DNA from: an uncultured Staphylococcaceae bacterium
GTDB lineage: Bacteria; Bacillota_I; Bacilli_A; RFN20; CAG-826
NCBI GenBank assembly: GCA_964654155.1
Contig: CAZZGL010000002.1
Span: forward strand, 35,902-99,901
Direction of reading: 5' to 3'
Length of the DNA stretch: 64,000 nucleotides
Below are positions 12,148 through 31,593 of this stretch, piece after piece. Numbering within the stretch: position 1 is the first letter of the stretch; every line of letters begins with the position of its first letter. Position numbers and translations under genes: made by a program. The notes under the pieces are model-generated. The model saw only the letters and a list, made by a program, of their open reading frames with translations. It was not told the DNA's origin and ran no database searches.

Positions 12148-12864
12148 ATGGGTAGAGCACATGAAGTACGTGCAGCATCAATGGCCGCGACAAATGCAAA
12201 AAAAACCGCTCTATATATGAGAGCGTCAAAAGAAATCTATATGGCTGCTAAATCAGGAGAACCTGATCCAAATAGCAATCTTGCATTACGTGCCACAATT
12301 GAAAAATTTAGAGGTCAAAACATTCCAAAAGATGTAATTCAACGCGCTATTGAAAAAGCAAAAGGCGGATCTGCTGAAAGCTATATTGCTGGTCGTTATG
12401 AAGGATATGGACCAGGAAATGTTGCTTTCATCATTGACACTTTAACCGATAACTCAAACAGAGCGTTTGTTGAAGTTAGAACTGTTGTCAATAAAAGAGG
12501 GGGCCATTTAGGAGCACCAGGCAGTGTTTCTTTCAACTTCGAGCAAGCAGGAGTTTTAGTTTTTGAATCAAGCATGAGCCGTGATGAAATTGAAGAATTG
12601 CTTATTATGGGCGATGTCGATGTCACAGATGTCACAAAAGATGATGATGGTTATGTTGAAATTCATGTTACACCAACAGCGTTAAACGATGCTAAAAATT
12701 GTTTAAATGAAAATGGAATTACTGAATTCGAAACCTGCGAATTGCAAATGTTGCCAAATGATTATGTTGATCCTAACGATGAGGATCGTGAAAAAATGCA
12801 ATCGATGCTCGATATGCTTGATGAATTAGAAGATGTACAAGCCGTTTGGCATAATATGAAGTAA
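12148..12864 (+). CDS. yebC: YebC/PmpR family DNA-binding transcriptional regulator
   Basis: MGRAHEVRAASMAATNAKKTALYMRASKEI...GGSAESY is the canonical YebC family sequence. Confidence 0.9.
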   Translation: MGRAHEVRAASMAATNAKKTALYMRASKEIYMAAKSGEPDPNSNLALRATIEKFRGQNIPKDVIQRAIEKAKGGSAESYIAGRYEGYGPGNVAFIIDTLTDNSNRAFVEVRTVVNKRGGHLGAPGSVSFNFEQAGVLVFESSMSRDEIEELLIMGDVDVTDVTKDDDGYVEIHVTPTALNDAKNCLNENGITEFETCELQMLPNDYVDPNDEDREKMQSMLDMLDELEDVQAVWHNMK

Positions 12865-12883
12865 AAATCAAACAAAAAACACT

Positions 12884-12911
12884 TGATAAAAGTATCATAA
12901 AATGATACTAT
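12884..12911 (+). promoter_or_regulatory. Promoter for rpmE: TTGATA, a 16-nt spacer, then TGaTACTAT, with the palindrome AGTATCAtaaaaTGATACT inside the spacer
   Basis: Near-consensus -35 and a TG-extended -10. A perfect 7-bp inverted repeat lies between them. Confidence 0.4.
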
Positions 12912-12971
12912 GTCTAAGCCAAACTTTCTTTAAGCACGCTTAGAGGCTTAAGGCGGAAGGAGATTTTGAAA

Positions 12972-13178
12972 ATGAAAAAAGACACACACCCAAAATATCA
13001 CAAATGCACAGTTACTTGTGTTTCTTGTGGTACAACATTTGAAACAGGATCAATCTTAAAGGAAATCCGTGTTGATACTTGTTCAAATTGTCATCCATTC
13101 TACACAGGTAAACAACGTTTTACCCAAGCAGATGGTCGTGTTGATAAGTTCAACAAAAAATACGGATTGGGAAAATAA
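12972..13178 (+). CDS. rpmE: 50S ribosomal protein L31 (zinc-ribbon C+ form)
   Basis: [11 protein letters not shown]...[12 protein letters not shown]...[22 protein letters not shown] precedes the start. Confidence 0.9.
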
Positions 13179-13198
13179 GAATCCATATTTACTATTAA

Positions 13199-13228
13199 AC
13201 CGCTATCTGAGGGATAGTGGTTTTTTTC
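13199..13228 (+). terminator. Rho-independent terminator of rpmE
   Basis: ACCGCTATC-TGAGG-GATAGTGGT followed by TTTTTTT. Confidence 0.6.
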
Positions 13229-13253
13229 TTTGACAAAGGAGGAGAAAATTAAT

Positions 13254-14840
13254 ATGAAAAATAAATTCTACATAACAACGCCTATTTATTATCCAAGTGC
13301 TAATTTGCATATTGGACACGCTTATTGTACAGTTATGTGCGATGTTTACGCGCGATATAGAAGAATGAGAAGTCAAGAAGTATTTTTCTTAACCGGTTCT
13401 GATGAACACGGTGAAAAGATTCAAAAAAATGCTATTTTAGCAAATAAAAGCGAACAAGAATTTGTCGATGAAATAGTAAAAGGATTTAAAGAGCTTTGGA
13501 GTGCATTAGAAATCAGCAATGATGATTATATTAGAACAACTGAAAAAAGACATACCAAAGTCGTTCAAGATGTTTTTTCTAAACTTTTAGAACAAGGTGA
13601 CATTTATTTAGGTGATTACGAAGGTTGGTACTGTACTCCTTGTGAATCATTCTGGACCGACACCCAAGTTGGAGAAGAAAAAATTTGTCCTGATTGCGGA
13701 AGACCTGTTTATAAAGCAAAAGAACAAGCTTATTTCTTAAGAGTAGGAAAATATGTTGATAGATTATTAAAGTTCTACGATGAACATCCTGAATTCATTA
13801 CTCCTGAATCAAGAAAAAATGAAATGATAAATACCTTTATTAAGCCAGGATTAGAAGATTTATGCATTACAAGAACCACTTTTTCATGGGGTGTTCCTGT
13901 AAAAGAAGATCCTCGTCATGTAGTTTATGTTTGGATTGATGCATTATTAAATTATATTTCTGCATTAGGCTATGATAGCGATGACTTATCTTTATTTAAT
14001 AAATTTTGGAATGAAGATACTGAAATTATTCATGTTATTGGTAATGATATTACTCGTTTCCACACCATTTATTGGCCTATCATCTTAATGGCGCTTAACA
14101 TTCATCTTCCAGACAAAGTATTTGTCCATGGATTATTAATGATGAAAGATGGAAAAATGTCTAAATCAAAAGGAAATGTTGTTAGCCCATATCCTTTAAT
14201 TGATCGTTATGGTTTAGATGCAGTTCGTTATTATTTAGTTAGAGAAACTATTTTTGGTAGTGATGGAAGATTCACCCCTGAAGATTTTGTCACTCGTATT
14301 AATACCGATTTAGCCAATGATTTTGGAAATCTTTTAAATCGCACAGTTGGAATGATGATTAAATATTTTGATGGTCATATTCCTGCTTATCAAGGTGATG
14401 TTAATCCTCAAGATAAAGAACTTAGAAGCTTAGCTATGTTCACAATCGATCAATATGAAAAAGCCTTCGATGATGTTAAAATCACTGATGCCTTTATTGC
14501 TGTAATGAATCTTATTTCAAGAGCAAACAAATATATTGATGAAACTACACCTTGGGCATTAGCAAAAGATGAAACAAAAACAAAAGAGCTTCAAAGCGTC
14601 ATGTCACATCTTGTAAATGTTTTATATATTGCTGGTGTATTATTACAACCTGTCTTAACTCACGCACCAAAATCTTTATTTGAACAACTTGGGGTAAAAG
14701 AAGAATATCAAAACTACGATAGTATCCATAATTTTGGAATTATTGGTGATGTTGATGTTACTAAAGGAAATCCATTATTTCCTCGTTTAGATGCAAAAGA
14801 AGAAATTGAATTTATCGCTTCTTTAATGCAAAAAAAATAA
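13254..14840 (+). CDS. metG: Methionyl-tRNA synthetase (short form)
   Basis: HIGHAY (HIGH motif), KMSKS and zinc knuckle CTPCESF...CPDCGRP. An AAAGGAGGAG RBS supports the MKNKFYITTPIYY start. Confidence 0.9.
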   Translation: MKNKFYITTPIYYPSANLHIGHAYCTVMCDVYARYRRMRSQEVFFLTGSDEHGEKIQKNAILANKSEQEFVDEIVKGFKELWSALEISNDDYIRTTEKRHTKVVQDVFSKLLEQGDIYLGDYEGWYCTPCESFWTDTQVGEEKICPDCGRPVYKAKEQAYFLRVGKYVDRLLKFYDEHPEFITPESRKNEMINTFIKPGLEDLCITRTTFSWGVPVKEDPRHVVYVWIDALLNYISALGYDSDDLSLFNKFWNEDTEIIHVIGNDITRFHTIYWPIILMALNIHLPDKVFVHGLLMMKDGKMSKSKGNVVSPYPLIDRYGLDAVRYYLVRETIFGSDGRFTPEDFVTRINTDLANDFGNLLNRTVGMMIKYFDGHIPAYQGDVNPQDKELRSLAMFTIDQYEKAFDDVKITDAFIAVMNLISRANKYIDETTPWALAKDETKTKELQSVMSHLVNVLYIAGVLLQPVLTHAPKSLFEQLGVKEEYQNYDSIHNFGIIGDVDVTKGNPLFPRLDAKEEIEFIASLMQKK

Positions 14841-14852
14841 ATTTATAAGATT

Positions 14853-14876
14853 AGTCCCTTTTATAGGGACTTTTTA
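14853..14876 (+). terminator. Rho-independent terminator of metG
   Basis: AGTCCCT-TTTAT-AGGGACT followed by TTTTT. Confidence 0.6.
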
Positions 14877-14887
14877 GGAGATAAAAA

Positions 14888-16255
14888 ATGGCAAAAAAAA
14901 GAGATTTAAATTTAGGAGAATTTGAAGCTATATGTGAAGATATATCTTTTGATGGTAAAGGAGTAACTCATTATCAAGGAAAGGTTGTTTTTGTTCCAGG
15001 CTTTTTTCTTAATGAAAAAGCGATTATTCGCTTGGTATATGAAAGAAGCGAATTTTATGCTGGGAAAATTATTAAAATAATCGAAAAATCTCCATACAGA
15101 ATAGAACCAAAATGCAAAATATGTTCTAGTTGTGGTGGCTGTTGCTATCAACAATTAGAATATGCCTCGCAATTAGAATATAAAACTAAAAAGGTTAAAG
15201 ACGCTTTCTTTAAATTTGCCAAAATGAATGTTAATGTTGAACCTTGTATAGGAATGACAGAACCATATTTTTATCGTAATAAAATTCAAATGCCTATCGG
15301 TATATCTCAAAAAGGAAGGATTATTACTGGGTTTTATAAAGAAAAAACCCATGAAATTGTTCCTGTAGATAAATGCTATATTGAAAACGAACAAGCGGAA
15401 GAAGTTTTAAATATAATTAAAGATTTAATGAAAAAATATAAAATATTGCCTTATAACGAGGACACAAGAAAAGGCATTATTCGTCATATCTTGATAAGAA
15501 CTTCATTCCATAAAAAACAAATTATGGTTGTATTAGTAACAAATCAAGATGAATTCGGCGGAAGAAGAGAATTTGTAAAAGCTCTTCATTTAACTTGCTC
15601 ATCGATTACAACAATTGTACAAAACATTAATACCCGTGATACAAATGTCATATTAGGTGAAAAAGAACGTGTTCTGTATGGAAAAGGGTATATTGAAGAT
15701 TCATTATGTGATGTTTGGTTTCAAATATCCGCGAAATCATTTTATCAAATTAATCCTATTCAAACAGAAATTTTATATAATACCGCAATTAAGCTTGCTA
15801 ATTTAAGTGGAAATGAAACTGTTTTAGATTGTTACTGTGGAATTGGAACAATAGGTTTAATTGCTTCTAAATATGCAAAAAAAGTTATCGGTATTGAAAT
15901 TGTTAAAGAAGCCGTTTCTGACGCAATTAAAAATGCAAAAAGAAATAATATTAGCAACGAAACTTTTGTTGTCGGTGACGCAAGTGAGTATATGGTTGAA
16001 TACGCTAAATCAAAAGGAAAAGTTGATGTTTTGTTTATGGATCCACCAAGAAAAGGTTCTGATCAAAAATTTTTAAGTTCTGTATTAACTTTACTTCCTA
16101 AAAAAATCATCTATATTTCTTGTGATCCAACTACTTTAGCAAGAGACATTAAGATTCTTTCTTCTAAATATAAAATAACTAGAATTCAACCTGTGGATAT
16201 GTTTCCAATGACTTATCATGTAGAGACAATCTGTGCTTTAACATTAAATAAGTAA
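14888..16255 (+). CDS. rlmD: 23S rRNA (uracil-C5)-methyltransferase RlmD/RumA family (TRAM + Fe-S + SAM MTase)
   Basis: N-terminal TRAM domain, a CKICSSCGGCCYQQ Fe-S cluster and a C-terminal class I MTase (DCYCGIGT, MDPPRKG). Confidence 0.85.
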   Translation: MAKKRDLNLGEFEAICEDISFDGKGVTHYQGKVVFVPGFFLNEKAIIRLVYERSEFYAGKIIKIIEKSPYRIEPKCKICSSCGGCCYQQLEYASQLEYKTKKVKDAFFKFAKMNVNVEPCIGMTEPYFYRNKIQMPIGISQKGRIITGFYKEKTHEIVPVDKCYIENEQAEEVLNIIKDLMKKYKILPYNEDTRKGIIRHILIRTSFHKKQIMVVLVTNQDEFGGRREFVKALHLTCSSITTIVQNINTRDTNVILGEKERVLYGKGYIEDSLCDVWFQISAKSFYQINPIQTEILYNTAIKLANLSGNETVLDCYCGIGTIGLIASKYAKKVIGIEIVKEAVSDAIKNAKRNNISNETFVVGDASEYMVEYAKSKGKVDVLFMDPPRKGSDQKFLSSVLTLLPKKIIYISCDPTTLARDIKILSSKYKITRIQPVDMFPMTYHVETICALTLNK

Positions 16256-16444
16256 TATCGAATACGCGTTAAAATATATTTAAATTAATTATGTTTCCAA
16301 TCATAAATGATATATTTAAAAATAATAAAAATTTTATTATTTATGTTAGTTTTATAATGTAGGGGAAAAATTAGTAAGATTATAACAATCCCTTCGTTAA
16401 AGCCTTCATTCATTTTTTATGCGATTACCCTAAATAAACAATAT

Positions 16445-16501
16445 TTATTGTATTTTTTTAATTAAGCAAATGATATAATATTCACAGAAAGGCAATATTG
16501 C
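16445..16501 (+). promoter_or_regulatory. Promoter region of the defense operon: TG-extended -10 TGATATAAT (16471-16479), with the 10-bp palindrome GCAATATTGC (16492-16501) just downstream
   Basis: Seen directly. The poor -35 is offset by the extended -10. The palindrome sits at the predicted +1 to +20 region. Confidence 0.3.
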
Positions 16502-16571
16502 ATTATGGCATTTACAAATAAGAATTAATTAGCAAAAAACAAAAAAGAAATTAGTAATAAGAGGGAAAAAC

Positions 16572-17807
16572 ATGGCATTTTACACAAGAGAAGAAGCAAA
16601 GGTTAAAATAGAGACAATTTTGAAAGAACAACATCCACTTAAAACAGGCCAAACATTACCAATCAGAAGTGGAACAAAGTTTAATGTCTATTCAATTCCA
16701 GTAGAATATTTAGCCCCCAATGTTTTAAATGATAGAATAGCTTGGAGAATCAGAGAATTTGAAGCTTCAAATGGTAGAAAACTATCATTCGACTCACCAG
16801 AAGATGTTGAATATGTATACGAATTATTAGAAAAAGAATCTCCAAAAGAAAACGAAAAAACATTAAAAGATTTAGCAGAAAAAGGGCAACAAGTTGATGG
16901 CATCATAACCAAAGATGGAATTATAATTGATGGTAATAGAAGAGCTACTTTACTAAGAAAATTATTTAAAGGAGCTGCTTCAAAGTTCAATAAAAATCTA
17001 GAAGATTTTAGATTTTTTAACGCTATTGTTTTATCAGAAGACATTGATGATAAAGAAATTATGGCATTAGAAACTAGAATTCAAATTGGTGAAGACAAAA
17101 AATTAGATTATAACCCTATTTGTATGTATATTAAAGTTGATAATTTATCCGCAGCTGGATATAATGATCAACAAATTGCCAATTATATGAATATTACAGA
17201 AAGTGATGTAAAAGAAAAAAAAGAGATTTTTAGGTTGATGAATGAATATCTTGAGGCAATTGGGAAGCCTAATCATTATACATTATTAGAAGGGTTAGAA
17301 GATCAATTCATAAATACTAAAACTGTATTTAAAAGAATGGACAACAGAACATATCAAACATATGATTGGGATTACACAGCTGAAGATGTTGCAAATTTTA
17401 AACAAGTTTGCTATGACTATTTAAGAGCGAAATTTGAAGGAAAAAAATATAGGGATGTATTAATTGGAAAGTCTTTTAAAACAAATGGCGTATTTATTAA
17501 AAAAAGTGTTTGGGAAGAATTTTTTGAAAACCACGAAAAAGTAATTAATGATAATAATCCGCAAAATGAAAAAGACTGGGAAGCTCTAGGCAAAAAACAA
17601 TTTGTACAAATTTTAAAAAATGCATCTTTAAAGTTAGAAGAAGTATTAAATGAGAAAAATGTATCATCATTAGTCATAACAATTCAATCAAAAATCAGAA
17701 ATCTTATGGATTGTTTAAATGAAAATAATGAACTAACACAAGAAGACTACAAAATTTTAAAAAAAGCTAACAGTCTATTATGGGATATATTGAAGGAATA
17801 TAAATAA
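16572..17807 (+). CDS. ParB/Srx-superfamily (DUF262/GmrS-like) NTPase-domain protein, first gene of the defense operon
   Basis: The GIITKDGIIIDGNRRATLLRKL motif matches the ParB box II (GxRR) and the DUF262 (DGQQRxT) signature. No HNH/DUF1524 C-terminal domain. The stop overlaps the next gene's ATG (TAAATG). Confidence 0.55.
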   Translation: MAFYTREEAKVKIETILKEQHPLKTGQTLPIRSGTKFNVYSIPVEYLAPNVLNDRIAWRIREFEASNGRKLSFDSPEDVEYVYELLEKESPKENEKTLKDLAEKGQQVDGIITKDGIIIDGNRRATLLRKLFKGAASKFNKNLEDFRFFNAIVLSEDIDDKEIMALETRIQIGEDKKLDYNPICMYIKVDNLSAAGYNDQQIANYMNITESDVKEKKEIFRLMNEYLEAIGKPNHYTLLEGLEDQFINTKTVFKRMDNRTYQTYDWDYTAEDVANFKQVCYDYLRAKFEGKKYRDVLIGKSFKTNGVFIKKSVWEEFFENHEKVINDNNPQNEKDWEALGKKQFVQILKNASLKLEEVLNEKNVSSLVITIQSKIRNLMDCLNENNELTQEDYKILKKANSLLWDILKEYK

Positions 17808-19796
17808 ATGAACGAAGCTATTTGCAAGTTTAAAGATAATATTTTGCTTATTGCCGGTTTACCATTAGATAATCAAAGAAAAATTATGAAAATTAAGCTT
17901 TTTTTAAATCCCTATCAATTGCTTTCATATAGATTTATAGATAACACATTAGAAATAAAATTTATTATTGATGATGCAAACATTATTGTTAAAGAGATAA
18001 ATGAAATCATAAAATTTATTGAAAATGTTTTTAATATAAGTATTTTACTTGACGATAATATTAAAAAAAGTATAGATATACAAACAACCAAAGTTTTAAC
18101 TTTTAATGAAACCATAAAAAAATTAAAATCATTAAAAAATGGCTGCTTAGAAAAATCCGACGAATTTATCAAATACTGTGAATTTTCTGATCGTACTTTA
18201 AAATGTAAATTAAGGTCTTATCAGTATACTGCTTCATATTTTTTAACGATTGGTCAAGGCGGCTTTGATTTTTCTGTCCCTGGCTCCGGAAAAACCATTA
18301 TAACTTATGCTTCATATAATTATTTGAGATATAATAAAATTTGTGATTGCATTTTAATAATCGGACCTATAAATTCATTTAATGCATGGTTTGATGAATA
18401 TGAAACCTGTTTTAATAATCAACCTGATTTTATTTCTTTATCCTCTTACACAAAAAAAGATGCAGAAATATATCTACTATCATCCAAAAATTATCATAAA
18501 GAAATAACCTTTATAAACATTGATAAAGTATGGAGAATGAGAAAAGAATTAATCAATTTTATTAAGAATAAAAATATATTGCTCATAGTAGATGAAGCTC
18601 ATAAAGAAAAAAATCCAAACGCACAAATTACGAAAGCTGTTCTAGAAATAACAAAATATGCAAAATATAGAATTATTCTCACTGGTACACCTATGCCTAA
18701 TGGATACGAAGATTTATTTTCTTTAATGAAAATTTATGAGCCTTATGAAAGAATATTACCGTACAATTACAGTGAATTGGTAAAATTAACAAAAATTGGT
18801 GCAAATAAAGACCAACAAAGTAAAATTATGCAGGCTATCAAACCAATCTATTCTAGGGTATCTAAAGCATATCTATTAAATACCGGAGAATTACTTCCAC
18901 CTAATTACAGATTTATTAAATGCAAATTATCAAATGAACAAAAAGAAATTTATAATTTTTTAAACAAAATGGCATTTCAAATTGAAGACGACTTTAATTC
19001 TATTTTAAATTTGAATTTAATGAAAGCTATATTAATTAGAAAAATGCAAGTTTCTGCAAACCCTGGATTATTATCAAAAAGCATAATCAATTCAATTGAA
19101 GAATATTATGAAGAATATTATGAAGATTTCAATAAAGAAAATTCAGATAATGAAGCTTTATTAAAAGCTGATAATGATATAAAAAAAGCAATCGCAGCAT
19201 CACCAATTGCTAATTTAATATATAAATTTGAATCAGGTTATTACCAATCACAGAAAAATATAATTGCAGTAAATCTTGCCTTAGAATTAGTTTCAAAAGG
19301 GGAAAAAGTTATTATTTGGGATGTTTTTGTTCAAAATATGTATTCTATAAAAAAATTATTAAATTCTAAATCAGACATAGAAATTGAAATAATTAATGGC
19401 ACAATTAGTGGTCAAGATAGGCAAAATGCAATAAATAGATTTAAATTAGGAAACAGCATGATTTTAATTGCAAATCCAGCAACCTTAGCTGAATCAATTT
19501 CATTACATAAAGCATGTCATAACGCTATCTATGTTAATAGAAATTTTAATGCAGCACAATTTATTCAATCAAAAGATAGAATCCATAGAATAAATATGCC
19601 AAAAGAAATAACAGCAAATTATTATTTTATAATTAATGAAGATACCATTGATGAAACTATTCAAGATAGACTTGAATTAAAAGAAAATAGAATGATTAAA
19701 ATTTTAGACTCTGATGAACTTGAAATAGGTGGATCCGAGTTTGAAAATAATTCATTTATGTCTTTGGATGACATTATTTCATCCTTCAAAAAGTAG
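17808..19796 (+). CDS. SNF2-family DEAD/DEAH-box helicase/ATPase
   Basis: Motif I VPGSGKT, motif II LLIVDEAH, motif III ILTGTPMPNG and C-terminal motif VI QSKDRIHRI. Translationally coupled to the upstream ParB-like gene. Confidence 0.8.
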   Translation: MNEAICKFKDNILLIAGLPLDNQRKIMKIKLFLNPYQLLSYRFIDNTLEIKFIIDDANIIVKEINEIIKFIENVFNISILLDDNIKKSIDIQTTKVLTFNETIKKLKSLKNGCLEKSDEFIKYCEFSDRTLKCKLRSYQYTASYFLTIGQGGFDFSVPGSGKTIITYASYNYLRYNKICDCILIIGPINSFNAWFDEYETCFNNQPDFISLSSYTKKDAEIYLLSSKNYHKEITFINIDKVWRMRKELINFIKNKNILLIVDEAHKEKNPNAQITKAVLEITKYAKYRIILTGTPMPNGYEDLFSLMKIYEPYERILPYNYSELVKLTKIGANKDQQSKIMQAIKPIYSRVSKAYLLNTGELLPPNYRFIKCKLSNEQKEIYNFLNKMAFQIEDDFNSILNLNLMKAILIRKMQVSANPGLLSKSIINSIEEYYEEYYEDFNKENSDNEALLKADNDIKKAIAASPIANLIYKFESGYYQSQKNIIAVNLALELVSKGEKVIIWDVFVQNMYSIKKLLNSKSDIEIEIINGTISGQDRQNAINRFKLGNSMILIANPATLAESISLHKACHNAIYVNRNFNAAQFIQSKDRIHRINMPKEITANYYFIINEDTIDETIQDRLELKENRMIKILDSDELEIGGSEFENNSFMSLDDIISSFKK

Positions 19797-19804
19797 GTGT
19801 AACA

Positions 19805-20509
19805 ATGGAAATTAATCAAATAATTCTTTTAAACAACTTATTAAATGAAGAAATTAAAAAATACGAACTCTTTTCTACGAACGAATTAAAGGAAATGCTC
19901 GGTATTGATAAAAACTCCAAAAATCTTAATAGAGTTATTTTTAATAAAATTATTGAATCATCTATCAATAGAGATATACTATTGACATTACTCAAACAAT
20001 GCTCTTGTATTATAAAAACTGTAAATTTAGAATGGAATAATTCATTGAAAGAATCGATGTCATTAAACGTTTTTAAATATTTTGACATATGTAATGAAAT
20101 TTGGGAAAATTCTAAATTATATAAATATTTTATAGAAAATACTTTTGTTTTTGTTGTTTTTAAAAAAGATTTTAAAGGTAGCAAACTGGAAAAAATTAAA
20201 GTTTGGAAAATGCCTAAAAGTATATTAAACTCTGGAGTTAGAGAAACTTGGAGTATAACACAATCTTTAATTAAATCTGGAAAAATTATAAACTACATAG
20301 ATAAAAGAAATCGCTTTATAACATTTTTTCCAACTAGTAGCGAAACTAAATATATTCATGTTAGACCTCATGCACAAAATAGAAATGACACTCTTGAATT
20401 ACCTGTCCCTGATAAACTAACTGGTAAAACAAGATTTATGAAACATAGTTTCTGGCTAAATAGTAACTTTGTAAAGAAAATAATTGTAGAGGACAAATAT
20501 TATGAATAA
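19805..20509 (+). CDS. MutH/Sau3AI-family endonuclease, putative type II REase of a GATC-type R-M
   Basis: The C-terminal YIHVRPHAQNRNDTLELPVPDKLTGKTRFMKHSFWLNSNFV aligns with the E. coli MutH C-terminal arm ([38 protein letters not shown]). NSGVRETWS matches the MutH NSGVTWETS segment. It has a D-x6-E-x2-K candidate catalytic triad. Confidence 0.6.
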   Translation: MEINQIILLNNLLNEEIKKYELFSTNELKEMLGIDKNSKNLNRVIFNKIIESSINRDILLTLLKQCSCIIKTVNLEWNNSLKESMSLNVFKYFDICNEIWENSKLYKYFIENTFVFVVFKKDFKGSKLEKIKVWKMPKSILNSGVRETWSITQSLIKSGKIINYIDKRNRFITFFPTSSETKYIHVRPHAQNRNDTLELPVPDKLTGKTRFMKHSFWLNSNFVKKIIVEDKYYE

Positions 20510-21287
20510 TTTAAATAGACAAGAATTAACAATTATTTTAGCATATTATTTTTTTGATAGCAGAAAAACAACTATTAATACAATGAACTCTTTTAACACT
20601 AGATTTAATTTAACTTTTAAAAAAGATTTTAATACTCAAACACTAATATATTATTGCTCTTTATTTAAAAATATCGATCCTTCATTTAATGCCAAACCAA
20701 TAAATAATGAAGATTTAAGAATTAATGAACTATGGAATTATTATATTGTGCAAGATAGAATAAGTGATTTAAAAAAAATATATAATAGTTTTAAGCAAGG
20801 TCTACTAAAAAAAAGAATAATATCTATTAAAAATGAGGCTGCCGATGATATAAATGAATACATATCTAAAGAAATAAAAAATTTACATTTTACTTTTTTA
20901 GGAGATGAAGCTAAAAATTTATATAATTTGTCATCATTTTCAAGTCAATCACTTCGTGATTTAAACGTTTCCTTTAATGCTTTAAACTTAGCTAAGTTTA
21001 AATGTGAAGTAGACAATAGCCATAAAACTTTTATAAGAAAAAATATTGATATTCCATATACTGAAGGACATCATATAATACCATTGCAATACCAATATCT
21101 ATTTAAATCTAATCTTGATGTAGAGGCTAATGTCGTATCTTTATGCAGTAATTGTCATAATAATCTGCATTATGGAAAAGATTTTGAAGAATTATTAACA
21201 ATAATTTTTACAGATGAAAGAAAAAAAAGATTAGAAAAATGTGGAATAAAAATAACATTAGAAGAACTAATTTCTTTTTATAAATAA
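20502..21287 (+). CDS. HNH endonuclease-domain protein
   Basis: C-terminal EGHHIIPL...NVVSLCSNCHNNLHYG is the canonical HNH/His-Me finger with a zinc-ligand Cys pair. It overlaps the MutH-like gene by 8 nt. Confidence 0.7.
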   Translation: MNNLNRQELTIILAYYFFDSRKTTINTMNSFNTRFNLTFKKDFNTQTLIYYCSLFKNIDPSFNAKPINNEDLRINELWNYYIVQDRISDLKKIYNSFKQGLLKKRIISIKNEAADDINEYISKEIKNLHFTFLGDEAKNLYNLSSFSSQSLRDLNVSFNALNLAKFKCEVDNSHKTFIRKNIDIPYTEGHHIIPLQYQYLFKSNLDVEANVVSLCSNCHNNLHYGKDFEELLTIIFTDERKKRLEKCGIKITLEELISFYK

Positions 21288-21302
21288 AGAAAGGATTATC
21301 CA

Positions 21303-22550
21303 ATGAAAAAAACAGTAGTAGAACTATTCGCCGGTGTAGGCGGATTTAGAGTAGGATTAAATAAAATTAAAAAAATTGATAACAATGGTCAGGCTATTGA
21401 AAATAAAAAATTTAAAATTATTTGGGCAAATCAATGGGAACCATCAACTAAAGCACAACATGCCTATGAATGCTACAAACTAAGGTTTAATTGTTCAGAA
21501 GAAGAATGTTCTAATGTAGATATATCCTTAATTGATAAAAGTTCAATTCCTTCTCACACATTATTATGTGGCGGATTTCCATGTCAAGATTACTCTGTCG
21601 CAAGATCATTAAAAAACGAGAAAGGAATTGAAGGAAAAAAAGGCGTTTTATGGTGGCAAATTTATGAGGTTTTAACTATTAAAGAACCTCCGTTTGTTCT
21701 TTTAGAAAATGTTGATAGATTATTAAAATCACCTTCTAAACAAAGGGGGCAAGCTTTCGGAATTATGTTAAGATGTTTTTATGAATTGGGATATTCCGTA
21801 GAATGGCGAGTCATAAACGCCGCACAATATGGTCACCCTCAAAGAAGAAGAAGAATATTTATTTTTGCATATAAAAATACAACAAAATATAGTAAAAAAA
21901 TGGGAATGTTATCTCTACACGAAATAATAACTTCTAAGGGAATTTTTGCTAAAAAATTTCCTGTTTCAAATTTAAAATATAAAATTAAAGAAATAGATAT
22001 CAAAGATTATAAAAGCTTAATAGATGTTTCTGAAAATTTTAAATTTATTTTTGAAAATTCTGGATATATGAATAATGGCATAATATATACTTTCAATACT
22101 ATTGCAAAAGAAAATAAGCCATTCGTCTTGCGCCAAATTCTTGAGAAGAGTGTTGATGAAAATCTATTTTTATCCCATTATAAAATTAAAAAATTTTCTT
22201 ATTTAAGAAATTCTAAAAAAATATTAAGAACTAGAAAAGAGGATGGCGGGACTTATTATTATTCCGAAGGAGCAATGGCGCCATATGATTCTTTAGATTT
22301 ACCTGGTAGAACTATGCTTACGAGTGAAGGAACAGTTAATAGGAGTTCTCATATAATAAAAGATCCTAATGAAAACAAACTAAGATTTTTATCTCCTATC
22401 GAATGTGAAAGATTGAATCAATTTCCCGATAATTGGACATCAACCATGTGCAATAGGAAAAGATATTTTATGATGGGAAACGCTCTTGTTTGTGGAATTG
22501 TATCAAAACTAGGTAATGAAATTTACAATATTATTAGAGAAGAAGATTAA
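21303..22550 (+). CDS. DNA (cytosine-5)-methyltransferase
   Basis: Motif I ELFAGVGGF, motif IV GGFPCQDYS, motif VI LLENV, motif VIII QRRRRIFIFAY and motif X MGNALV. Confidence 0.9.
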   Translation: MKKTVVELFAGVGGFRVGLNKIKKIDNNGQAIENKKFKIIWANQWEPSTKAQHAYECYKLRFNCSEEECSNVDISLIDKSSIPSHTLLCGGFPCQDYSVARSLKNEKGIEGKKGVLWWQIYEVLTIKEPPFVLLENVDRLLKSPSKQRGQAFGIMLRCFYELGYSVEWRVINAAQYGHPQRRRRIFIFAYKNTTKYSKKMGMLSLHEIITSKGIFAKKFPVSNLKYKIKEIDIKDYKSLIDVSENFKFIFENSGYMNNGIIYTFNTIAKENKPFVLRQILEKSVDENLFLSHYKIKKFSYLRNSKKILRTRKEDGGTYYYSEGAMAPYDSLDLPGRTMLTSEGTVNRSSHIIKDPNENKLRFLSPIECERLNQFPDNWTSTMCNRKRYFMMGNALVCGIVSKLGNEIYNIIREED

Positions 22551-22613
22551 TGTAAAAACAAATTAAATGCTCAATTAAATAATTAAACAAAAAACTAATT
22601 ACCACATTATATT

Positions 22614-22637
22614 AGGCGCTTTAAGCGCTCTTTTTTA
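22614..22637 (+). terminator. Rho-independent terminator after the MTase gene
   Basis: GGCGCT-TTA-AGCGCT stem followed by CTTTTTT. Confidence 0.5.
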
Positions 22638-22731
22638 TACTAAAATATTTGCTTTTCCAAAATTCACTAAAATATATCCCGATTTACAATAGCTTTTCTT
22701 TTTTTCTTAATTATTCTGAGAAACTATCGCT

Positions 22732-22786
22732 GTAATCTGTAAATCCTAAATATTTAGATTACATTCTTTTATTCAAATGATATAAT
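22732..22786 (+). promoter_or_regulatory. Nested palindromic operator GTAATCTgtaaatcCTAAATATTTAGATTACat overlapping the -35 of a TGATATAAT promoter for the PLD-nuclease gene
   Basis: Outer arms GTAATCT/AGATTAC and inner 12-bp perfect palindrome CTAAATATTTAG. The TG-extended -10 is at 22778-22786, 25 nt before the ATG and an AAGGAGAG RBS. Confidence 0.45.
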
Positions 22787-22810
22787 CAAAAACATAAGGA
22801 GAGTTAACTT

Positions 22811-23596
22811 ATGATTAAAACAATTAAAACACCATCCGATAATACTTTTTATACACTTATAAAAGAAGCAAAAAATAGTATATATTTATGTGCTCCTTAT
22901 ATCAAAAAAGATATTGTAGATAAAATTTTATTTCATAAAAAGCAAGGTATCGAAATGATAGTTATAACATCATCAAATATATCAAATTTTATAAATGGCT
23001 CATTAGATGCTTCTGCAATAAAAGAACTGATAAAAAATGATGTTGTTGTTAGAAATTATCAAAAACTACATGCAAAAATTTATATTTTTGATAAAAAGAA
23101 AGCACTTATTACTTCTGCAAATCTAACAAATAACGGATTGTATAATAATTTTGAATATGGAGTGTTAATTGATGATGATACAATAACAGATAAAGTATAT
23201 GAAGATTATATTCAAATGATTAACGACGATCAATGTGGCACTTTTAATGATGCTTTATTAAATAGAGTTTCTAAGATTAAAATTAAGAAAAAGCCCATTA
23301 TTAATATAGATAATGATCACGACGCTATTATTATTGAAAATATTAATAATCTAATTAAAACTATGACTTCTTGGCAAAAAGATGTCTTTTTAATCTTAAA
23401 TCAAATGGCAAATGAATACTTCACAACTTCGGATATCTATTCATACTCTAATGAATTAAAAGCAAAACATCCTCATAACAATCATATAATAGAAAAAATA
23501 AGACAAATATTACAACAATTACGAGATATGGGATTTATTAAATTTCTTGATCGAGGAACTTATAAAAAATTGTGGATTGATAAAAACAAATTTTAA
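22811..23596 (+). CDS. Phospholipase-D-family (HKD) nuclease with a C-terminal winged-helix-like domain
   Basis: Single HKD motif LHAKIYIFDKKKALITSANLTNNG, as in Nuc/BfiI/NgoFVII-type nucleases that dimerise. The C-terminal ~90 aa are predicted helical and wHTH-like. Confidence 0.7.
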   Translation: MIKTIKTPSDNTFYTLIKEAKNSIYLCAPYIKKDIVDKILFHKKQGIEMIVITSSNISNFINGSLDASAIKELIKNDVVVRNYQKLHAKIYIFDKKKALITSANLTNNGLYNNFEYGVLIDDDTITDKVYEDYIQMINDDQCGTFNDALLNRVSKIKIKKKPIINIDNDHDAIIIENINNLIKTMTSWQKDVFLILNQMANEYFTTSDIYSYSNELKAKHPHNNHIIEKIRQILQQLRDMGFIKFLDRGTYKKLWIDKNKF

Positions 23597-23644
23597 TTAT
23601 TTCTCCCTATCTGTAATTAAATAAACAACAATACTTAAATTACA

Positions 23645-23692
23645 AAGAGTTATTAACATGAAATTTAATTCATTTAATTAACTCTTTTTTTA
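23645..23692 (+). terminator. Rho-independent terminator of the PLD-nuclease gene
   Basis: AAGAGTTATTAA...TTAATTAACTCTT long imperfect stem followed by TTTTTTT. Confidence 0.5.
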
Positions 23693-23955
23693 TTTGATAG
23701 CTATGACGATATAAAATTGAATTGCACTTCATATAACTAAATTATTTATCAATAATAATTCTAAGTTTATTAATATTATAATTCATAATTTATGAACTAT
23801 TTTTTATTAAAAATCAGTTATTAAATTATTATTTAATATATATTTATATATATTAATTTTAAAAAAAATTATGAACAAAAAAATTCATGACATTGCTAAT
23901 TTTTATTACAAATAATACGATTTATAATTTTGTTGTAATCAAGGAGTGATGAAAG

Positions 23956-25278
23956 ATGAATAAAACAAAAATAGACTTAGATTCAATTTATGGATATGCC
24001 TGTGAAAAAGAAAAGCTAAAAAAAATCATTGATGAATTAAATAAAATTAAAACAGATAATACAAAGACAACTATTTATAAATCTGTTATTTTTTGTGGTC
24101 CAAAAGGTAATGGAAAGCACTTATTCGCGCAAGTGTTAGAGAATGAAACCAATTGTCCTCTTTATGAATTATCTCTTAATGATAATTGTGATGAAGATTT
24201 TATCACAAATGTTTTTTCTGAGGCAGCGGATAATAAACCATCAATTATAGTTATTGACGGAATTGATAATCTTATCAAAAGTAATCTCTTAGATAATAAA
24301 AAACATAAAGCGTTATTTACATTAACTAATTTATTATTATATAAAAATAACAATGGTATCATGACCATTTTAAACACAGATAATTTAGATTCTCTACCAA
24401 AAATTTACCTTGGTAATAATAAAAATAAACCCGTTATCAATTTAAATAACCCTTCTTTAAAATCAAGATATAATATAATATCAAAATATATTGCTCAAAC
24501 TACTTTTAGTTTTGAACCTAAGGTTAGTTTTATGGCGAAAGCCACAAAAGATTTTTCTGTTGAAGAAATATTAGTCTTACTTGATACTTGTATGACATTT
24601 TCTTCAAAAGATAACATCGTTTCTATAAAAGTATTTATTGAACAACTTAACAATATAAAATCATTTAATTTTATTATTGAAAGTGACTATAAAAAAGATT
24701 ACGCAATTGCAATTCAAGAACTAGGCAAATTATTTGTAGCGCGCCACTTTAAAAAGGGAATATACGAAATAAACATCGATAGAAACGAACCTTCTTCAGG
24801 AAGCATTTTTAATAATGATATTTTAAATGAAATAGGACCTTGTAAAGATGAATATGATGATTATTATGAAACTCGCCTTAATTCCGTTTTATTCTTTTCA
24901 AGAGATGATTTTGAGAAAATAATAATGGCTAATATAGGTAAAGAAATAGCTTCTGATTTAATATTGAATAACAATTATTCAAACCTTTATTATGACCATT
25001 TAGATCTTTATAGCAAAATTAAATATGCAGTAACTAATGGATTGTATGGAATTAAATTCGCAAATGATTATAGCTACGATTTTAATACCTTAAGAGGAAG
25101 AAAAACTGAAGAAAAAATAGATCAAGTAATTAATGATTTATATGAAAGAACTGAAAAAATTGTAAAAGAATATCTCCCCTTAATAACCACACTTGCCAAT
25201 TTATTAGTTAAAAAAAGACAAATGGATGATAAGGAAATAGAACCAATTATCATTGATTGGTTTAAAAATAATCAATAG
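23956..25278 (+). CDS. AAA+ ATPase with an unknown C-terminal domain
   Basis: Walker A VIFCGPKGNGKH and Walker B PSIIVIDGIDNL. The N-terminal IYGYACEKEKLKKI resembles AAA substrate-recognition lids. The C-terminal ~200 aa have no recognised motif. Confidence 0.65.
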   Translation: MNKTKIDLDSIYGYACEKEKLKKIIDELNKIKTDNTKTTIYKSVIFCGPKGNGKHLFAQVLENETNCPLYELSLNDNCDEDFITNVFSEAADNKPSIIVIDGIDNLIKSNLLDNKKHKALFTLTNLLLYKNNNGIMTILNTDNLDSLPKIYLGNNKNKPVINLNNPSLKSRYNIISKYIAQTTFSFEPKVSFMAKATKDFSVEEILVLLDTCMTFSSKDNIVSIKVFIEQLNNIKSFNFIIESDYKKDYAIAIQELGKLFVARHFKKGIYEINIDRNEPSSGSIFNNDILNEIGPCKDEYDDYYETRLNSVLFFSRDDFEKIIMANIGKEIASDLILNNNYSNLYYDHLDLYSKIKYAVTNGLYGIKFANDYSYDFNTLRGRKTEEKIDQVINDLYERTEKIVKEYLPLITTLANLLVKKRQMDDKEIEPIIIDWFKNNQ

Positions 25279-30211: not shown

Positions 30212-30318
30212 GGCGAAATTAAGCAAACCACTCTAAATTTTATAGATTTCGAACTTCAAAAAGAAAAGACCTCTTATAATTTATGTGTCAAATCCAATTA
30301 TTAAGGAGGTCTTTTCAT

Positions 30319-31593
30319 ATGGATTTTAACACATTACTTATAAGATTTGGTTTCGATAGTTCCAATTTTACAAATAAAATTATTAATACTATTGAGCATA
30401 ATGATGGAATTATATATGAAGTTGAAGAAATGTGCTCAAAAAATATATGTCCAAATTGTAATCATAGATATTTGGTCGTTCATAGCCATAAATGGATAAA
30501 TATTAAATTATCATCGATGCTTAAACTAAAAGAATGTTTAAGAATAAGACGAGTTAGATACAAATGTCCTAAATGTAACAAAACTTTTACTTTCAGCTTA
30601 AAGGGAATAGAAAAGAATAATTCAATTAGTAATTTTGTTATTACAGCAATAAAAAATGAATTTTATACTATTCAATCTTTTTCTACTATTGCAAAAAGAT
30701 ATGAATTGTCTACTCAAACTGTATTAAATATTTTTGATGATTATACAAAGATAATGCCACGAAGACCACTTCCACAATATTTATGCATAGATGAAAAACA
30801 TTTTGAAGGTGATACTGATGGTAAATATTGTGTTATTATATCTGATTTCTTTTCTAGTGAAGTTATAGATGTTTTAGAAAATAGACAAATGCCTTATTTA
30901 GATGCTTATTTTTCTAAAATATCTCAAAAAGAATGTGAAAATGTTAAAGTTTTTATATCTGATATGTATGATGCATATTCAACAATAAAAAACAAATACT
31001 TTCCGCACGCTTTATTTGTTGCTGATTTATTTCATGTCGTTAAATTATTAACAACCTCTCTTAATAAAATTAGAATCAGAACTTATAATCAGTATGCTAT
31101 AGAAGGCTCGATTGAAAAACACTTCATGAAAACAAACTGGAAATCGTTTTTAATAGATCTTTTTAAAATTCAAAAAAATGAATATTATAGTAGAAAATTT
31201 GATACATACATAAGTTATAGTGAAATTATTCTTAGATGCTTAAAGTTAAATATAACATTTTGGGATGGATATACCATACTTCAAGAATTACTCCATTATG
31301 ATAAATATGAAACATATTCCGAAGCGGAAAGATTTTTAACTAGAATCATTAATAAATTAGATGCATCAGACGATGAATTATTAAATAAAGTTGCAGCTTC
31401 TTATAAAAAATGGAAAGTCGGTATTGTTAATGGATTAGCTAAAAATCAAACTGGAAAAAGATTTAGCAATGCAATCGCAGAAGGTAACAATTCACACATT
31501 CAAAAGATCATTAATGTTTCTTATGGATATAGAAATTTTAAAAGATTTCGAGCAAGAATTATGTTGATTTTAACATACAAAATAAAAGGATGA
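30319..31593 (+). CDS. ISL3-family transposase
   Basis: N-terminal zinc finger CPNCN...CPKCN (zf-ISL3) followed by the DDE domain (CIDEKHF...ISDMYDAY...ADLFHVVK). An AAGGAGG RBS supports the MDFNTLL start. Confidence 0.85.
   Translation: MDFNTLLIRFGFDSSNFTNKIINTIEHNDGIIYEVEEMCSKNICPNCNHRYLVVHSHKWINIKLSSMLKLKECLRIRRVRYKCPKCNKTFTFSLKGIEKNNSISNFVITAIKNEFYTIQSFSTIAKRYELSTQTVLNIFDDYTKIMPRRPLPQYLCIDEKHFEGDTDGKYCVIISDFFSSEVIDVLENRQMPYLDAYFSKISQKECENVKVFISDMYDAYSTIKNKYFPHALFVADLFHVVKLLTTSLNKIRIRTYNQYAIEGSIEKHFMKTNWKSFLIDLFKIQKNEYYSRKFDTYISYSEIILRCLKLNITFWDGYTILQELLHYDKYETYSEAERFLTRIINKLDASDDELLNKVAASYKKWKVGIVNGLAKNQTGKRFSNAIAEGNNSHIQKIINVSYGYRNFKRFRARIMLILTYKIKG

Follow-up and report, generated by a model that had tools for sequence, protein, structure and literature searches.

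The open reading frame (ORF) at 22811-23596 of the window (the whole 64-kb stretch of DNA that was analysed) encodes a two-domain protein, in which an N-terminal single-HKD PLD nuclease domain is joined to a C-terminal winged helix (wH) of the DpnI type. Overall, the best explanation is that the gene encodes a stand-alone restriction endonuclease of the PLD-wH kind, modification-dependent (type IV), and that the palindrome in front of the gene is inert; we regard this explanation as probable. The protein is an ordinary additional member of a known, biochemically uncharacterised family. It will be of little surprise to a specialist, as PLD-wH fusions have been known since 2024. The features of the locus are listed in Table 1.

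Table 1. Features of the PLD-wH gene and its flanks, with positions in the window (L008, L010 and L012 are sister contigs)
Feature	Position	Strand	Remarks
Upstream intrinsic terminator	22615..22637	+	stem 22615-22629 GGCGCT-TTA-AGCGCT then CTTTTTT; dG -7.7 kcal/mol, z -2.0
8-bp arms TGTAATCT / AGATTACA	22731-38 / 22756-63	.	second overlapping inverted repeat
12-bp perfect palindrome CTAAATATTTAG	22746-22757	.	one of two overlapping inverted repeats
PLD-wH promoter	22758..22786	+	10/12 matches, TG present
Weak -35-like ATTACA	22758-22763	+	17-nt spacer to -10; position not conserved in L008/L010
Extended -10 TGATATAAT (TGnTATAAT)	22778-22786	+	TG present; invariant in window, L012, L008, L010
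RBS AGGAGA	22797-22802	+	8 nt before ATG; invariant in four aligned haplotype sequences
PLD-wH fusion endonuclease gene (predicted)	22811..23596	+	261 aa plus stop; AlphaFold model pLDDT 92.6
PLD nuclease domain	aa 15-133, 22853..23209	+	Pfam PLDc_2 8.7e-21; RE_NgoFVII 9e-09
Catalytic H87-x-K89-x4-D94	23069-23092	+	one HKD motif in chain
DpnI-type winged-helix domain	aa 187-253, 23369..23569	+	Pfam DpnI_C 5.3e-25
Recognition-helix residues E228, K229, R231, Q232, Q235	23492-23515	+	all five identical to DpnI
PLD-wH intrinsic terminator	23644..23694	+	hairpin 23644-23687, AU-rich 18-bp interrupted stem + T-run; dG -11.8, z -3.7

A PLD nuclease domain joined to a DpnI-type winged helix

The original prediction, a single-HKD PLD nuclease that ends in a winged-helix DNA-binding domain, was borne out by the Pfam domains PLDc_2 and DpnI_C and by fold matches, and the identities of the two domains were established directly, together with the conservation of their catalytic and pocket residues. 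Both HAKIYIFD (residues 87-94) and the later TSANLTNNG are present, and H87, K89, S102, N104, N113 and E115 are invariant among 51 homologues. The Pfam RE_NgoFVII model scores 35.3 bits (cut-off 23.8), and the top fold matches of the PLD domain are NucT, Nuc (target TM 0.80), SauUSI, BfiI (2c1l), Zucchini and NgoAVII (4rct). A cardiolipin or phosphatidylserine synthase was considered as well and rejected: the chain has one HKD motif instead of two, the score of TIGR04265 is 38.7 against a cut-off of 290, and the best folds are those of nucleases.

For the C-terminal domain, DpnI was the sole significant sequence match in the PDB (phmmer 3.4e-09; profile search 2.8e-20), with the alignment restricted to residues 186-254. 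Prediction of the structure of this domain (pLDDT 91) confirmed a winged helix; over 67 residues the model lies 0.6 Å from DpnI 4esj, with 42% identity, and the next-best structural match other than DpnI had E = 7e-3 or worse. The PADLOC model mREase_II (type II methyl-directed restriction enzyme) matched the C-terminus alone (aa 184-254, 5.5e-17). The pocket of DpnI is made of E228, K229, R231, Q232 and Q235 (Siwek 2012, PMC3424567), and these residues carry the same numbers in the protein studied here. K229, R231 and Q232 occur in 50 of the 51 homologues and Q235 in all of them; E228 is variable (E in 8 of 51), which counts against the best explanation. That the winged helix is specifically the m6A-GATC reader of DpnI had been missed in the original prediction. 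With this reader, the protein belongs to the published PLD-wH family, whose members are predicted to be modification-dependent (type IV).

Such fusions, with Aba4572I and CbaI as examples, were predicted to be m6A-dependent type IV restriction enzymes by Helbrecht et al. (Front Microbiol 2024, PMC11037411). The likeness, which is one of domains and description, extends to the order of the two domains (N-terminal PLD, C-terminal DpnI-like wH), to the m6A/GATC recognition motif and to the genomic setting, a stand-alone gene among defence genes, commonly close to type I R-M systems or to C5 methyltransferases. The catalytic motif of our protein is the canonical HxKx4D, whereas two others have the variants HxDx4K and HxEx4K (PMC11037411). 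Counted directly, 344 homologue clusters have the same two domains, as compared with the 27 members reported (PMC11037411); the family is therefore at least ten times larger than had been thought. All the homologue contexts that we examined proved to be defence islands (with type I R-M, GmrSD, SIR2-HerA, TIR or AbiEii), and most relatives are the last gene of some other defence operon, separated from the preceding gene by 0-25 nt. A plasmid search with the protein matched its PLD half alone and gave no full-length plasmid homologue. No PLD-wH enzyme has been purified or shown to cut DNA (PMC11037411). As it has all five pocket residues, is short and comes from an AT-rich genome with the standard code, the present protein would be a sensible choice for characterising a member of the family biochemically for the first time.

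Among enzymes of known properties, R.DpnI (type IIM, PDB 4ESJ/4KYW) shares the homologous C-terminal wH with identical pocket residues, but its catalytic domain is of the PD-(D/E)XK type with a Zn site, in place of which our protein has a PLD fold. The catalytic domain of R.DpnI recognises the site on its own and cleaves within GATC; with the metal-independent PLD fold that takes its place here, the cut should fall outside the site. The single-HKD PLD nuclease fold is held in common with BfiI, NgoAVII/NgoFVII and Nuc/NucT, and a dimer with one active site is expected as in these enzymes. Like BfiI and NgoAVII/NgoFVII, the protein links its nuclease domain to a DNA-recognition domain that is separate from it, and to this extent the BfiI/NgoFVII-like layout that had been proposed for it stands as an analogy. 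In BfiI and NgoAVII, however, the C-terminal domain is B3-like, unmodified sites are cut and cognate methyltransferases protect, whereas here the wH is of the kind that reads methyl-adenine and there is no cognate methyltransferase. SauUSI (a PLD-helicase-SRA-like type IV enzyme) also places a PLD domain in a modification-dependent enzyme, but it is ~950 aa long, ATP-dependent and a reader of 5mC/5hmC, in contrast to 261 aa, no ATPase and an m6A-type reader in our case.

Proposed mode of action and target

From the domains and their homologues we infer nuclease activity, m6A-GATC specificity and dimerisation of the protein, and a host without Dam, and propose the following mechanism. The DpnI-type wH would insert its recognition helix into the DNA major groove and would bind fully methylated G(m6A)TC, or relaxed S(m6A)TS, by means of the five-residue pocket. 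The single-HKD PLD domain would, as in Nuc and BfiI, build one active site together with that of a second subunit, and the dimer may then cut DNA near the bound site, independently of metal, via a covalent phospho-histidine intermediate. Phage or plasmid DNA with Dam-type methylation would be cut in this way; the host is presumed to be without such methylation, and hence its own DNA should not be a substrate. The motif [DNS]PP[YFW] of N6-adenine methyltransferases was found in none of the ORFs of at least 100 aa in the 64-kb window. Transcription of the gene would be constitutive, from its own extended -10 promoter, with insulation by the flanking terminators.

It is conceivable, if on balance improbable, that the PLD-wH gene and the neighbouring cassette make up a two-sided defence centred on GATC. 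The cassette would give the host's own DNA the mark GATm5C and would attack GATC that lacks modification, while the PLD-wH enzyme would attack phage DNA that evades the cassette through Dam-type Gm6ATC methylation. This wider reading is supported by plasmid homologues of the cassette methyltransferase, which adjoin enzymes of the BglII/BstYI family or of the MutH/Sau3AI family, and depletion of GATC in the window (observed/expected 0.57) can be counted as support too. If it is true, 'DpnII-like' and 'DpnI-like' logic coexist on one chromosome. In pneumococcus the two are mutually exclusive; here the mark of self would be on cytosine and not on adenine, which would allow them to coexist.

The target, or the mode of action, might also be a different one: another modification or sequence context could be recognised, or the protein could act by tight binding and a block of replication, or as an abortive-infection toxin. 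Of the wH fusions, only ~10% have the GATC/m6A motif, and the effect observed in vivo could be one of binding instead of cutting (PMC11037411). One of the two PLD-wH enzymes tested, Aba4572I, behaves anomalously; it is toxic even in Dam- cells and adjoins a predicted CGATCG amino-methyltransferase (PMC11037411). Relatives found in our searches adjoin adenine methyltransferases as well, and in at least one of them (L013) the gene is directly followed or preceded by an AlwI-family REase that comes with two D12-class adenine methyltransferases. Were Gm6ATC the specificity, such neighbours of L013 and Aba4572I would be conflicts. We still consider a different target or mode unlikely for our protein, in which all five pocket and recognition residues of DpnI are present and the HKD catalytic set is intact and invariant in the family.

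The transcription unit and the palindrome at its promoter

As originally predicted, the gene forms its own transcription unit, with an extended -10 (TGATATAAT) and with a hairpin and T-run located on either side. The upstream terminator closes an operon of SNF2, Sau3AI-C-like, HNH and C5-methyltransferase genes and is also found in the sister contig L012, which has the same cassette. The downstream terminator is kept in L008, L009 and L010, where one C>T change preserves a G-U pair; a simple terminator scan overlooks it because its stem has fewer than three G-C pairs. Protein identity to the window is at least 90% for L012 and about 99% for L008, and both contigs keep the -10 and the RBS. Rfam at the gathering threshold gave no RNA family anywhere in the 64-kb window.

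A 32-bp nested palindrome over the -35 (22732-22763), serving as an operator, had been described. Inverted repeats do exist at 22731-22763 and overlap the -35-like hexamer. Their symmetry centres, 22747 and 22751.5, are 4.5 bp apart, and the structure therefore consists of two overlapping, non-concentric inverted repeats and is not nested. It is also of a kind expected by chance in DNA of 28% GC: the window contains 41 perfect 12-bp palindromes as against 44±8 in dinucleotide shuffles, and such a palindrome is overlapped by an inverted repeat with 8-bp arms in 5 cases as against ~2.7 (range 0-7) in shuffles. The local hairpin, by comparison with shuffles of the same 46 nt, reaches z -4.2. A search for further copies of the exact palindrome sequence returned its single occurrence in the window, so it is not a dispersed repeat there; both the hairpin and the uniqueness would suit a repressor site.

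Comparison with the sister contigs is against a conserved function. In L012 a deletion of 7 bp has taken away the left arm, and there is a G>A change in the right one; in L008 and L010 the palindrome is absent, their homology to the window beginning only around 22764. Conservation of the promoter and terminator, and non-conservation of the palindrome, can be read directly from these contigs: the repeats degrade or disappear, and what stays is the -10, RBS and coding sequence. The palindrome region belongs to the sequence that flanks the variable upstream cassette on its 3' side. On these grounds the proposed operator is not supported, and the palindrome looks like a chance inverted repeat of AT-rich DNA with no regulatory role. 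More generally, where DNA has <30% GC, a palindrome over a promoter should be tested against background and compared among sister strains before an operator is called.

Silencing of a toxic autonomous nuclease by a trans-acting repressor bound over the -35 is accordingly very unlikely, and the surroundings of the gene point the same way. The flanks 22551-22810 and 23597-23955 contain no HTH gene and no small ORF, in agreement with the earlier remark that no regulator gene is nearby, and no operator for controller-type regulation is conserved among the sister contigs. One distant relative (L006) does have a 61-aa HTH_3 controller-like gene directly upstream, and tight control of expression is named by Helbrecht et al. 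as one escape from self-conflict (PMC11037411), but the idea of a toxic nuclease in need of tight repression fits poorly with a family in which most members end another defence operon and have no promoter of their own. A modification-dependent enzyme, as preferred here, should attack foreign Gm6ATC DNA only, which would make tight repression unnecessary.

Autoregulation, with the wH domain of the protein itself binding to the palindrome, was considered and rejected because the palindrome contains no GATC. As a side observation, the outer inverted repeat and the T-rich stretch after it could be a weak second terminator that stops transcripts reading through from the methyltransferase operon; this repeat is AU-rich and lost in L012.

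The defence island and partners proposed for the gene

The PLD-wH gene forms the right edge of a variable defence island, which lies downstream of rlmD. The sister contig L008 has the same downstream genes as the window and unrelated genes upstream; as L008 retains the gene without the upstream cassette, we conclude that the PLD-wH gene is independent of its neighbours. L008 has a 234-aa ORF upstream of the gene, which was compared with the 234-aa Sau3AI-C-like ORF of the window and is not the same, and an undescribed ORF after rlmD, tested as common to the window and L013, is not shared.

This independence bears on the reading that assigns the PLD protein, as restriction subunit, to the adjacent C5-methyltransferase cassette, the two being a classical R-M pair that cuts unmethylated DNA. 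The C5-methyltransferase gene is on the same strand, 260 bp upstream, but the two genes are separated by a terminator and a separate promoter. On the Psychrobacillus plasmid pPB01 a homologue of the methyltransferase adjoins a PLD-family (NgoFVII-like) protein; that protein, however, has no wH domain, and what the wH domain reads is methylated adenine and not unmodified DNA. Given also that L008 has the gene and not the cassette, and that the cassette is already equipped with HNH and Sau3AI-like proteins, an R-M pair is highly improbable.

That the protein is a DISARM DrmC (likewise a small PLD-family protein in a defence locus) acting with the nearby SNF2 helicase and C5 methyltransferase is hardly credible: weak PADLOC/NCBIfam matches link the PLD domain to DrmC, the SNF2 protein to DrmD and the methyltransferase to DrmMII, but neither DrmA (helicase) nor DrmB (DUF1998) is encoded among the ORFs from 12148 to 25278, NCBIfam DrmC_I scores 57.8 bits against a cut-off of 133 with the match limited to residues 82-133, the SNF2 protein fits ZorD better, the methyltransferase fits a type II model at 1e-163, the wH domain is extra, and the gene persists in L008 without the cassette. 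The DrmC-like part of the layout first proposed is dropped for this reason, and the stand-alone PLD-wH endonuclease is retained.

Beyond the contigs described, scans of metagenomes with invariant 29-33-mers found no further sister strains, and a scan of genome contigs returned one distant Clostridium locus only, 35% identical.

Domain architecture and predicted activity

The PLD-wH gene joins an N-terminal PLD nuclease domain to a C-terminal DpnI-type winged helix (wH). The N-terminus is matched in Pfam by PLDc_2 (aa 15-133, 8.7e-21) and by an NgoFVII-type PLD domain (9e-09), and in PADLOC by DrmC-type PLD models. The protein carries the catalytic motif H87-A-K89-IYIF-D94, with TSAN after it. 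Across 51 homologues, H87, K89, S102, N104, N113 and E115 never vary; 48 of these sequences also have D94. The full-length AlphaFold model (pLDDT 92.6) has the single-HKD nucleases NucT and Nuc as top fold matches (target TM up to 0.80); SauUSI, BfiI, Zucchini and NgoAVII come next. The motif, the PLDc_2 match and the fold matches support the single-HKD nuclease of the original prediction. Its stated counter-case, grouping with cardiolipin synthases, was not observed, because the protein falls below the cut-off of that family (38.7 versus 290 bits).

The C-terminal part, previously called winged-helix-like, matches Pfam DpnI_C (‘Dam-replacing HTH domain’; aa 187-253, 5.3e-25) and the PADLOC model for type II methyl-directed restriction enzymes. 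DpnI is the sole significant sequence match among solved structures (3.4e-09 for the protein, 2.8e-20 for the domain profile). Structure prediction, suggested earlier as a check, gives the DpnI wH: aa 183-261, modelled separately (pLDDT 91), superimpose on DpnI 4esj (67 residues at 0.6 Å; 42% identity), and all non-DpnI structure matches of this model have E-values of 7e-3 or worse. In the recognition helix of the DpnI wH, both Gm6ATC N6-methyl groups are buried in pockets of E228, K229, R231 and Q232, Q235 is close to these pockets, and the same residues also read bases (PMC3424567). In the alignment, the residues of the window protein at DpnI positions 228, 229, 231, 232 and 235 are the same five: E, K, R, Q and Q. 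Of 51 family sequences, 50 retain K229, R231 and Q232 and all have Q235; E228 is variable. On viral contigs (L025-L033), DpnI-type wH domains are mostly joined to other partners; of these nine loci, L029 alone gives a match over both the PLD and wH parts.

Helbrecht et al. reported the PLD-wH architecture in 2024; they found 27 such fusions and cloned two, Aba4572I and CbaI, treated as N6-methyladenine-dependent type IV systems (PMC11037411). Like other wH fusions, CbaI was toxic in Dam+ and non-toxic in Dam- cells; the behaviour of Aba4572I was anomalous, and neither enzyme could be over-expressed or purified (PMC11037411). Fusions with the DpnI motif, these authors argue, very likely read m6A in GATC (PMC11037411). 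The window protein has every sequence-level feature of these fusions and is, judged by its sequence, a further member of a family known since 2024. A homologue search returned 344 clusters at E ≤ 1e-3, nearly all of which share this pair of Pfam domains, and the family is therefore much larger than the reported 27.

A mechanism can be proposed from the Nuc, BfiI and DpnI families and the published fusions (PMC11037411). A PLD-wH homodimer would have two wH readers and a single composite HKD active site. Through the readers it would bind Gm6ATC, or the relaxed Sm6ATS, in fully methylated form on incoming DNA, and the PLD site would cut nearby, metal-independently, via a phospho-histidine intermediate; host DNA, without the mark, would be ignored. 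The 64-kb window, a fraction of the host genome, contains no ORF with the N6-adenine methyltransferase motif [DNS]PP[YFW]. We consider it likely that the gene encodes an m6A-dependent type IV nuclease. To our knowledge, no PLD-wH enzyme has so far been shown to cleave DNA. A point against m6A dependence is that some relatives adjoin adenine methyltransferases (L013, a related metagenome locus; also PMC11037411).

Transcription unit and palindrome

The gene has its own promoter elements, and it does form its own transcription unit, as had been proposed, because hairpin/T-run terminators flank it (Table) and the downstream one is conserved in sister contigs, where a single C>T change preserves a G-U pair. 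The GC content of the window is 27.9%.

Table. Coordinates of the PLD-wH gene, its control elements and its neighbours in the window
Feature	Position	Strand	Remarks
rlmD orthologue	14888-16255		directly 5' of defence island
Cassette	17808-22550	+	four genes directly upstream of PLD-wH gene
C5 methyltransferase	21303-22550	+	last cassette gene
Upstream terminator	22615-22629 (hairpin)		G+C-rich hairpin then T-run; dG -7.7; ends preceding operon
Outer inverted repeat	22731-38 and 22756-63		TGTAATCT pairs with AGATTACA; centre 22747
Perfect 12-mer palindrome	22746-22757		CTAAATATTTAG; centre 22751.5
Weak -35-like hexamer	22758-22763	+	ATTACA; 17-nt spacer to -10
Extended -10 element	22778-22786	+	TGATATAAT; promoter of PLD-wH gene
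Ribosome-binding site (RBS)	22797-22802	+	AGGAGA; 5' of PLD-wH ORF
PLD-wH gene	22811-23596	+	261-aa ORF
Downstream terminator	23644-23687 (hairpin)		AU-rich hairpin then T-run; dG -11.8, z-score -3.7
FtsH-like AAA ATPase	23956-25278	+	440 aa; 3' of PLD-wH gene
ISL3-family transposase	30283-31593	+	6.7 kb downstream

The original prediction also placed a nested palindromic operator at 22732-22763. The palindromic sequence is present; the nested layout is not, since the two symmetries have different centres and the repeats merely overlap. The window contains 41 perfect 12-bp palindromes, versus 44±8 in dinucleotide-preserving shuffles, and 16 perfect 14-bp palindromes; a 12-bp palindrome with an overlapping inverted repeat of 8-bp arms occurs five times, versus ~2.7 in shuffles (range 0-7). 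The palindrome at 22731-22763 is no more than chance in the window. A search for further copies, as had been suggested, yielded none in the window; the sequence is unique there and hence no dispersed repeat, and a single occurrence is equally predicted by a chance origin.

The 90% cluster of the PLD-wH protein includes variants from other assemblies, and the comparison covered three haplotypes. In the sister contig L012, which shares the upstream cassette, a 7-bp deletion eliminates one unit of a CTGTAAT/CTGTAAA tandem, and with it the left outer arm, and a G>A change strikes the right arm and the final base of the 12-mer. In L008, L009 and L010 the PLD-wH protein has two substitutions only, and the downstream genes (AAA ATPase, GDPD, GH31) are shared with the window. 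Their upstream genes are wholly different and unrelated to those of the window, and these contigs are without the palindrome region, since homology starts only at ~22764. No compared haplotype differs from the window in the extended -10 element, the RBS, the spacer between them or the start codon. Because this region is unchanged while the palindrome is degraded or absent, the extended -10 promoter is the conserved regulatory unit; constitutive expression from it would be harmless, as host DNA is presumed to lack Gm6ATC. The palindrome is part of the 3' flank of the variable cassette, with no visible constraint on it. Given its chance frequency, its state in the sister contigs and the lack of an HTH or other small ORF in either intergenic region flanking the gene, the operator interpretation is unsupported, while the gene-level observation is confirmed and sharpened.

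The upstream cassette

The cassette encodes a 662-aa SNF2 helicase, a 234-aa protein that matches the C-terminal (effector) half only of Sau3AI (1.1e-37), a 261-aa HNH nuclease and a C5 cytosine methyltransferase of 415 aa. Plasmid homologues of the methyltransferase (50-53% identity; L021, L022, L024) have either BglII/BstYI-family REases or a MutH/Sau3AI-family endonuclease and an SNF2 protein as neighbours; Priestia megaterium plasmid p1 has a similar grouping of dcm, MutH/Sau3AI-family endonuclease and SNF2 protein. GATC occurs 109 times in the window versus 191 expected, a ratio of 0.57; GGCC (0.28), ACGT (0.45) and CATG (0.59) are likewise depleted. From the neighbours of the methyltransferase homologues, the Sau3AI C-domain-like protein and the GATC depletion, the cassette is probably centred on GATC, with self marked by m5C. 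It may be an ATP-dependent, GATC-directed R-M variant. Such a cassette is compatible with a neighbouring Gm6ATC-dependent enzyme; the two-sided GATC defence that would result is speculative, and we think it improbable. In L012 (1091-2341) the C5 methyltransferase is broken into 190-aa and 216-aa ORFs, by a frameshift/stop or an assembly error; the HNH and PLD-wH genes are both intact.

The PLD-wH protein might itself be taken for the REase of the adjacent cassette. We reject this assignment: the cassette has its own candidate nucleases (HNH and the Sau3AI C-half-like protein), a terminator intervenes, and in L008 the PLD-wH gene is present without the cassette. The proposed likeness to DISARM DrmC did not stand, with an equivalog score of 57.8 against a cut-off of 133 and neither DrmA nor DrmB (DUF1998) in the ORFs from 12148 to 25278.

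Genomic context of relatives

In every locus examined the PLD-wH gene lies among defence genes. It follows a type I R-M system and an AAA_13 ATPase (L002), GmrSD (L007), an AAA_11/AAA_12 helicase near AbiEii (L016) or a 61-aa HTH_3 gene (L006); it lies between DUF4238 and TIR proteins in L019, and in L013 it abuts an AlwI-family REase with two D12 methyltransferases, SIR2-HerA then following. No conserved partner gene was found among the examined family loci, consistent with a type IV enzyme encoded by one gene. In most of these loci only 0-25 nt separate the PLD-wH gene from the gene upstream, an arrangement that means co-transcription without a dedicated promoter or operator; such contexts argue against a general need for the tight repression of a toxic nuclease that had been envisaged.

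In L013 (2513-6792) the PLD-wH gene begins one base after the AlwI-family REase gene, itself preceded by the two D12-class (Dam-like) adenine methyltransferases. If GGATC-specific, this system would make the Gm6ATC mark that the wH should read, a potential self-conflict; it may instead be of GAGTC type. In L006, which carries a distant member (58% identical) adjoined by a phage-type integrase, the HTH_3 gene (1120-1305; controller/antitoxin-like) ends 2 nt before the PLD-wH start, and some members may be under C-protein-style control.

An orthologue of rlmD (23S rRNA U1939 methyltransferase) stands directly 5' of the defence island in both the window and L013 (1-84; PLD-wH 53% identical), with similar RlmD C-termini; the first ORFs after rlmD in these two loci have no homology. 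In this lineage, defence islands may have a conserved hotspot in the 3' flank of rlmD. The FtsH-like AAA ATPase, which has no protease or membrane domain, is kept beside the PLD-wH gene in L008 and was not found beside other family members. The region around the gene looks recombinationally active. Besides the ISL3-family transposase of the window, L008 has upstream a Cys-rich 185-aa ORF (31-588), transposase-like by eye and without a Pfam match, and an 82-aa ORF resembling, by eye, an ATPase gene remnant.
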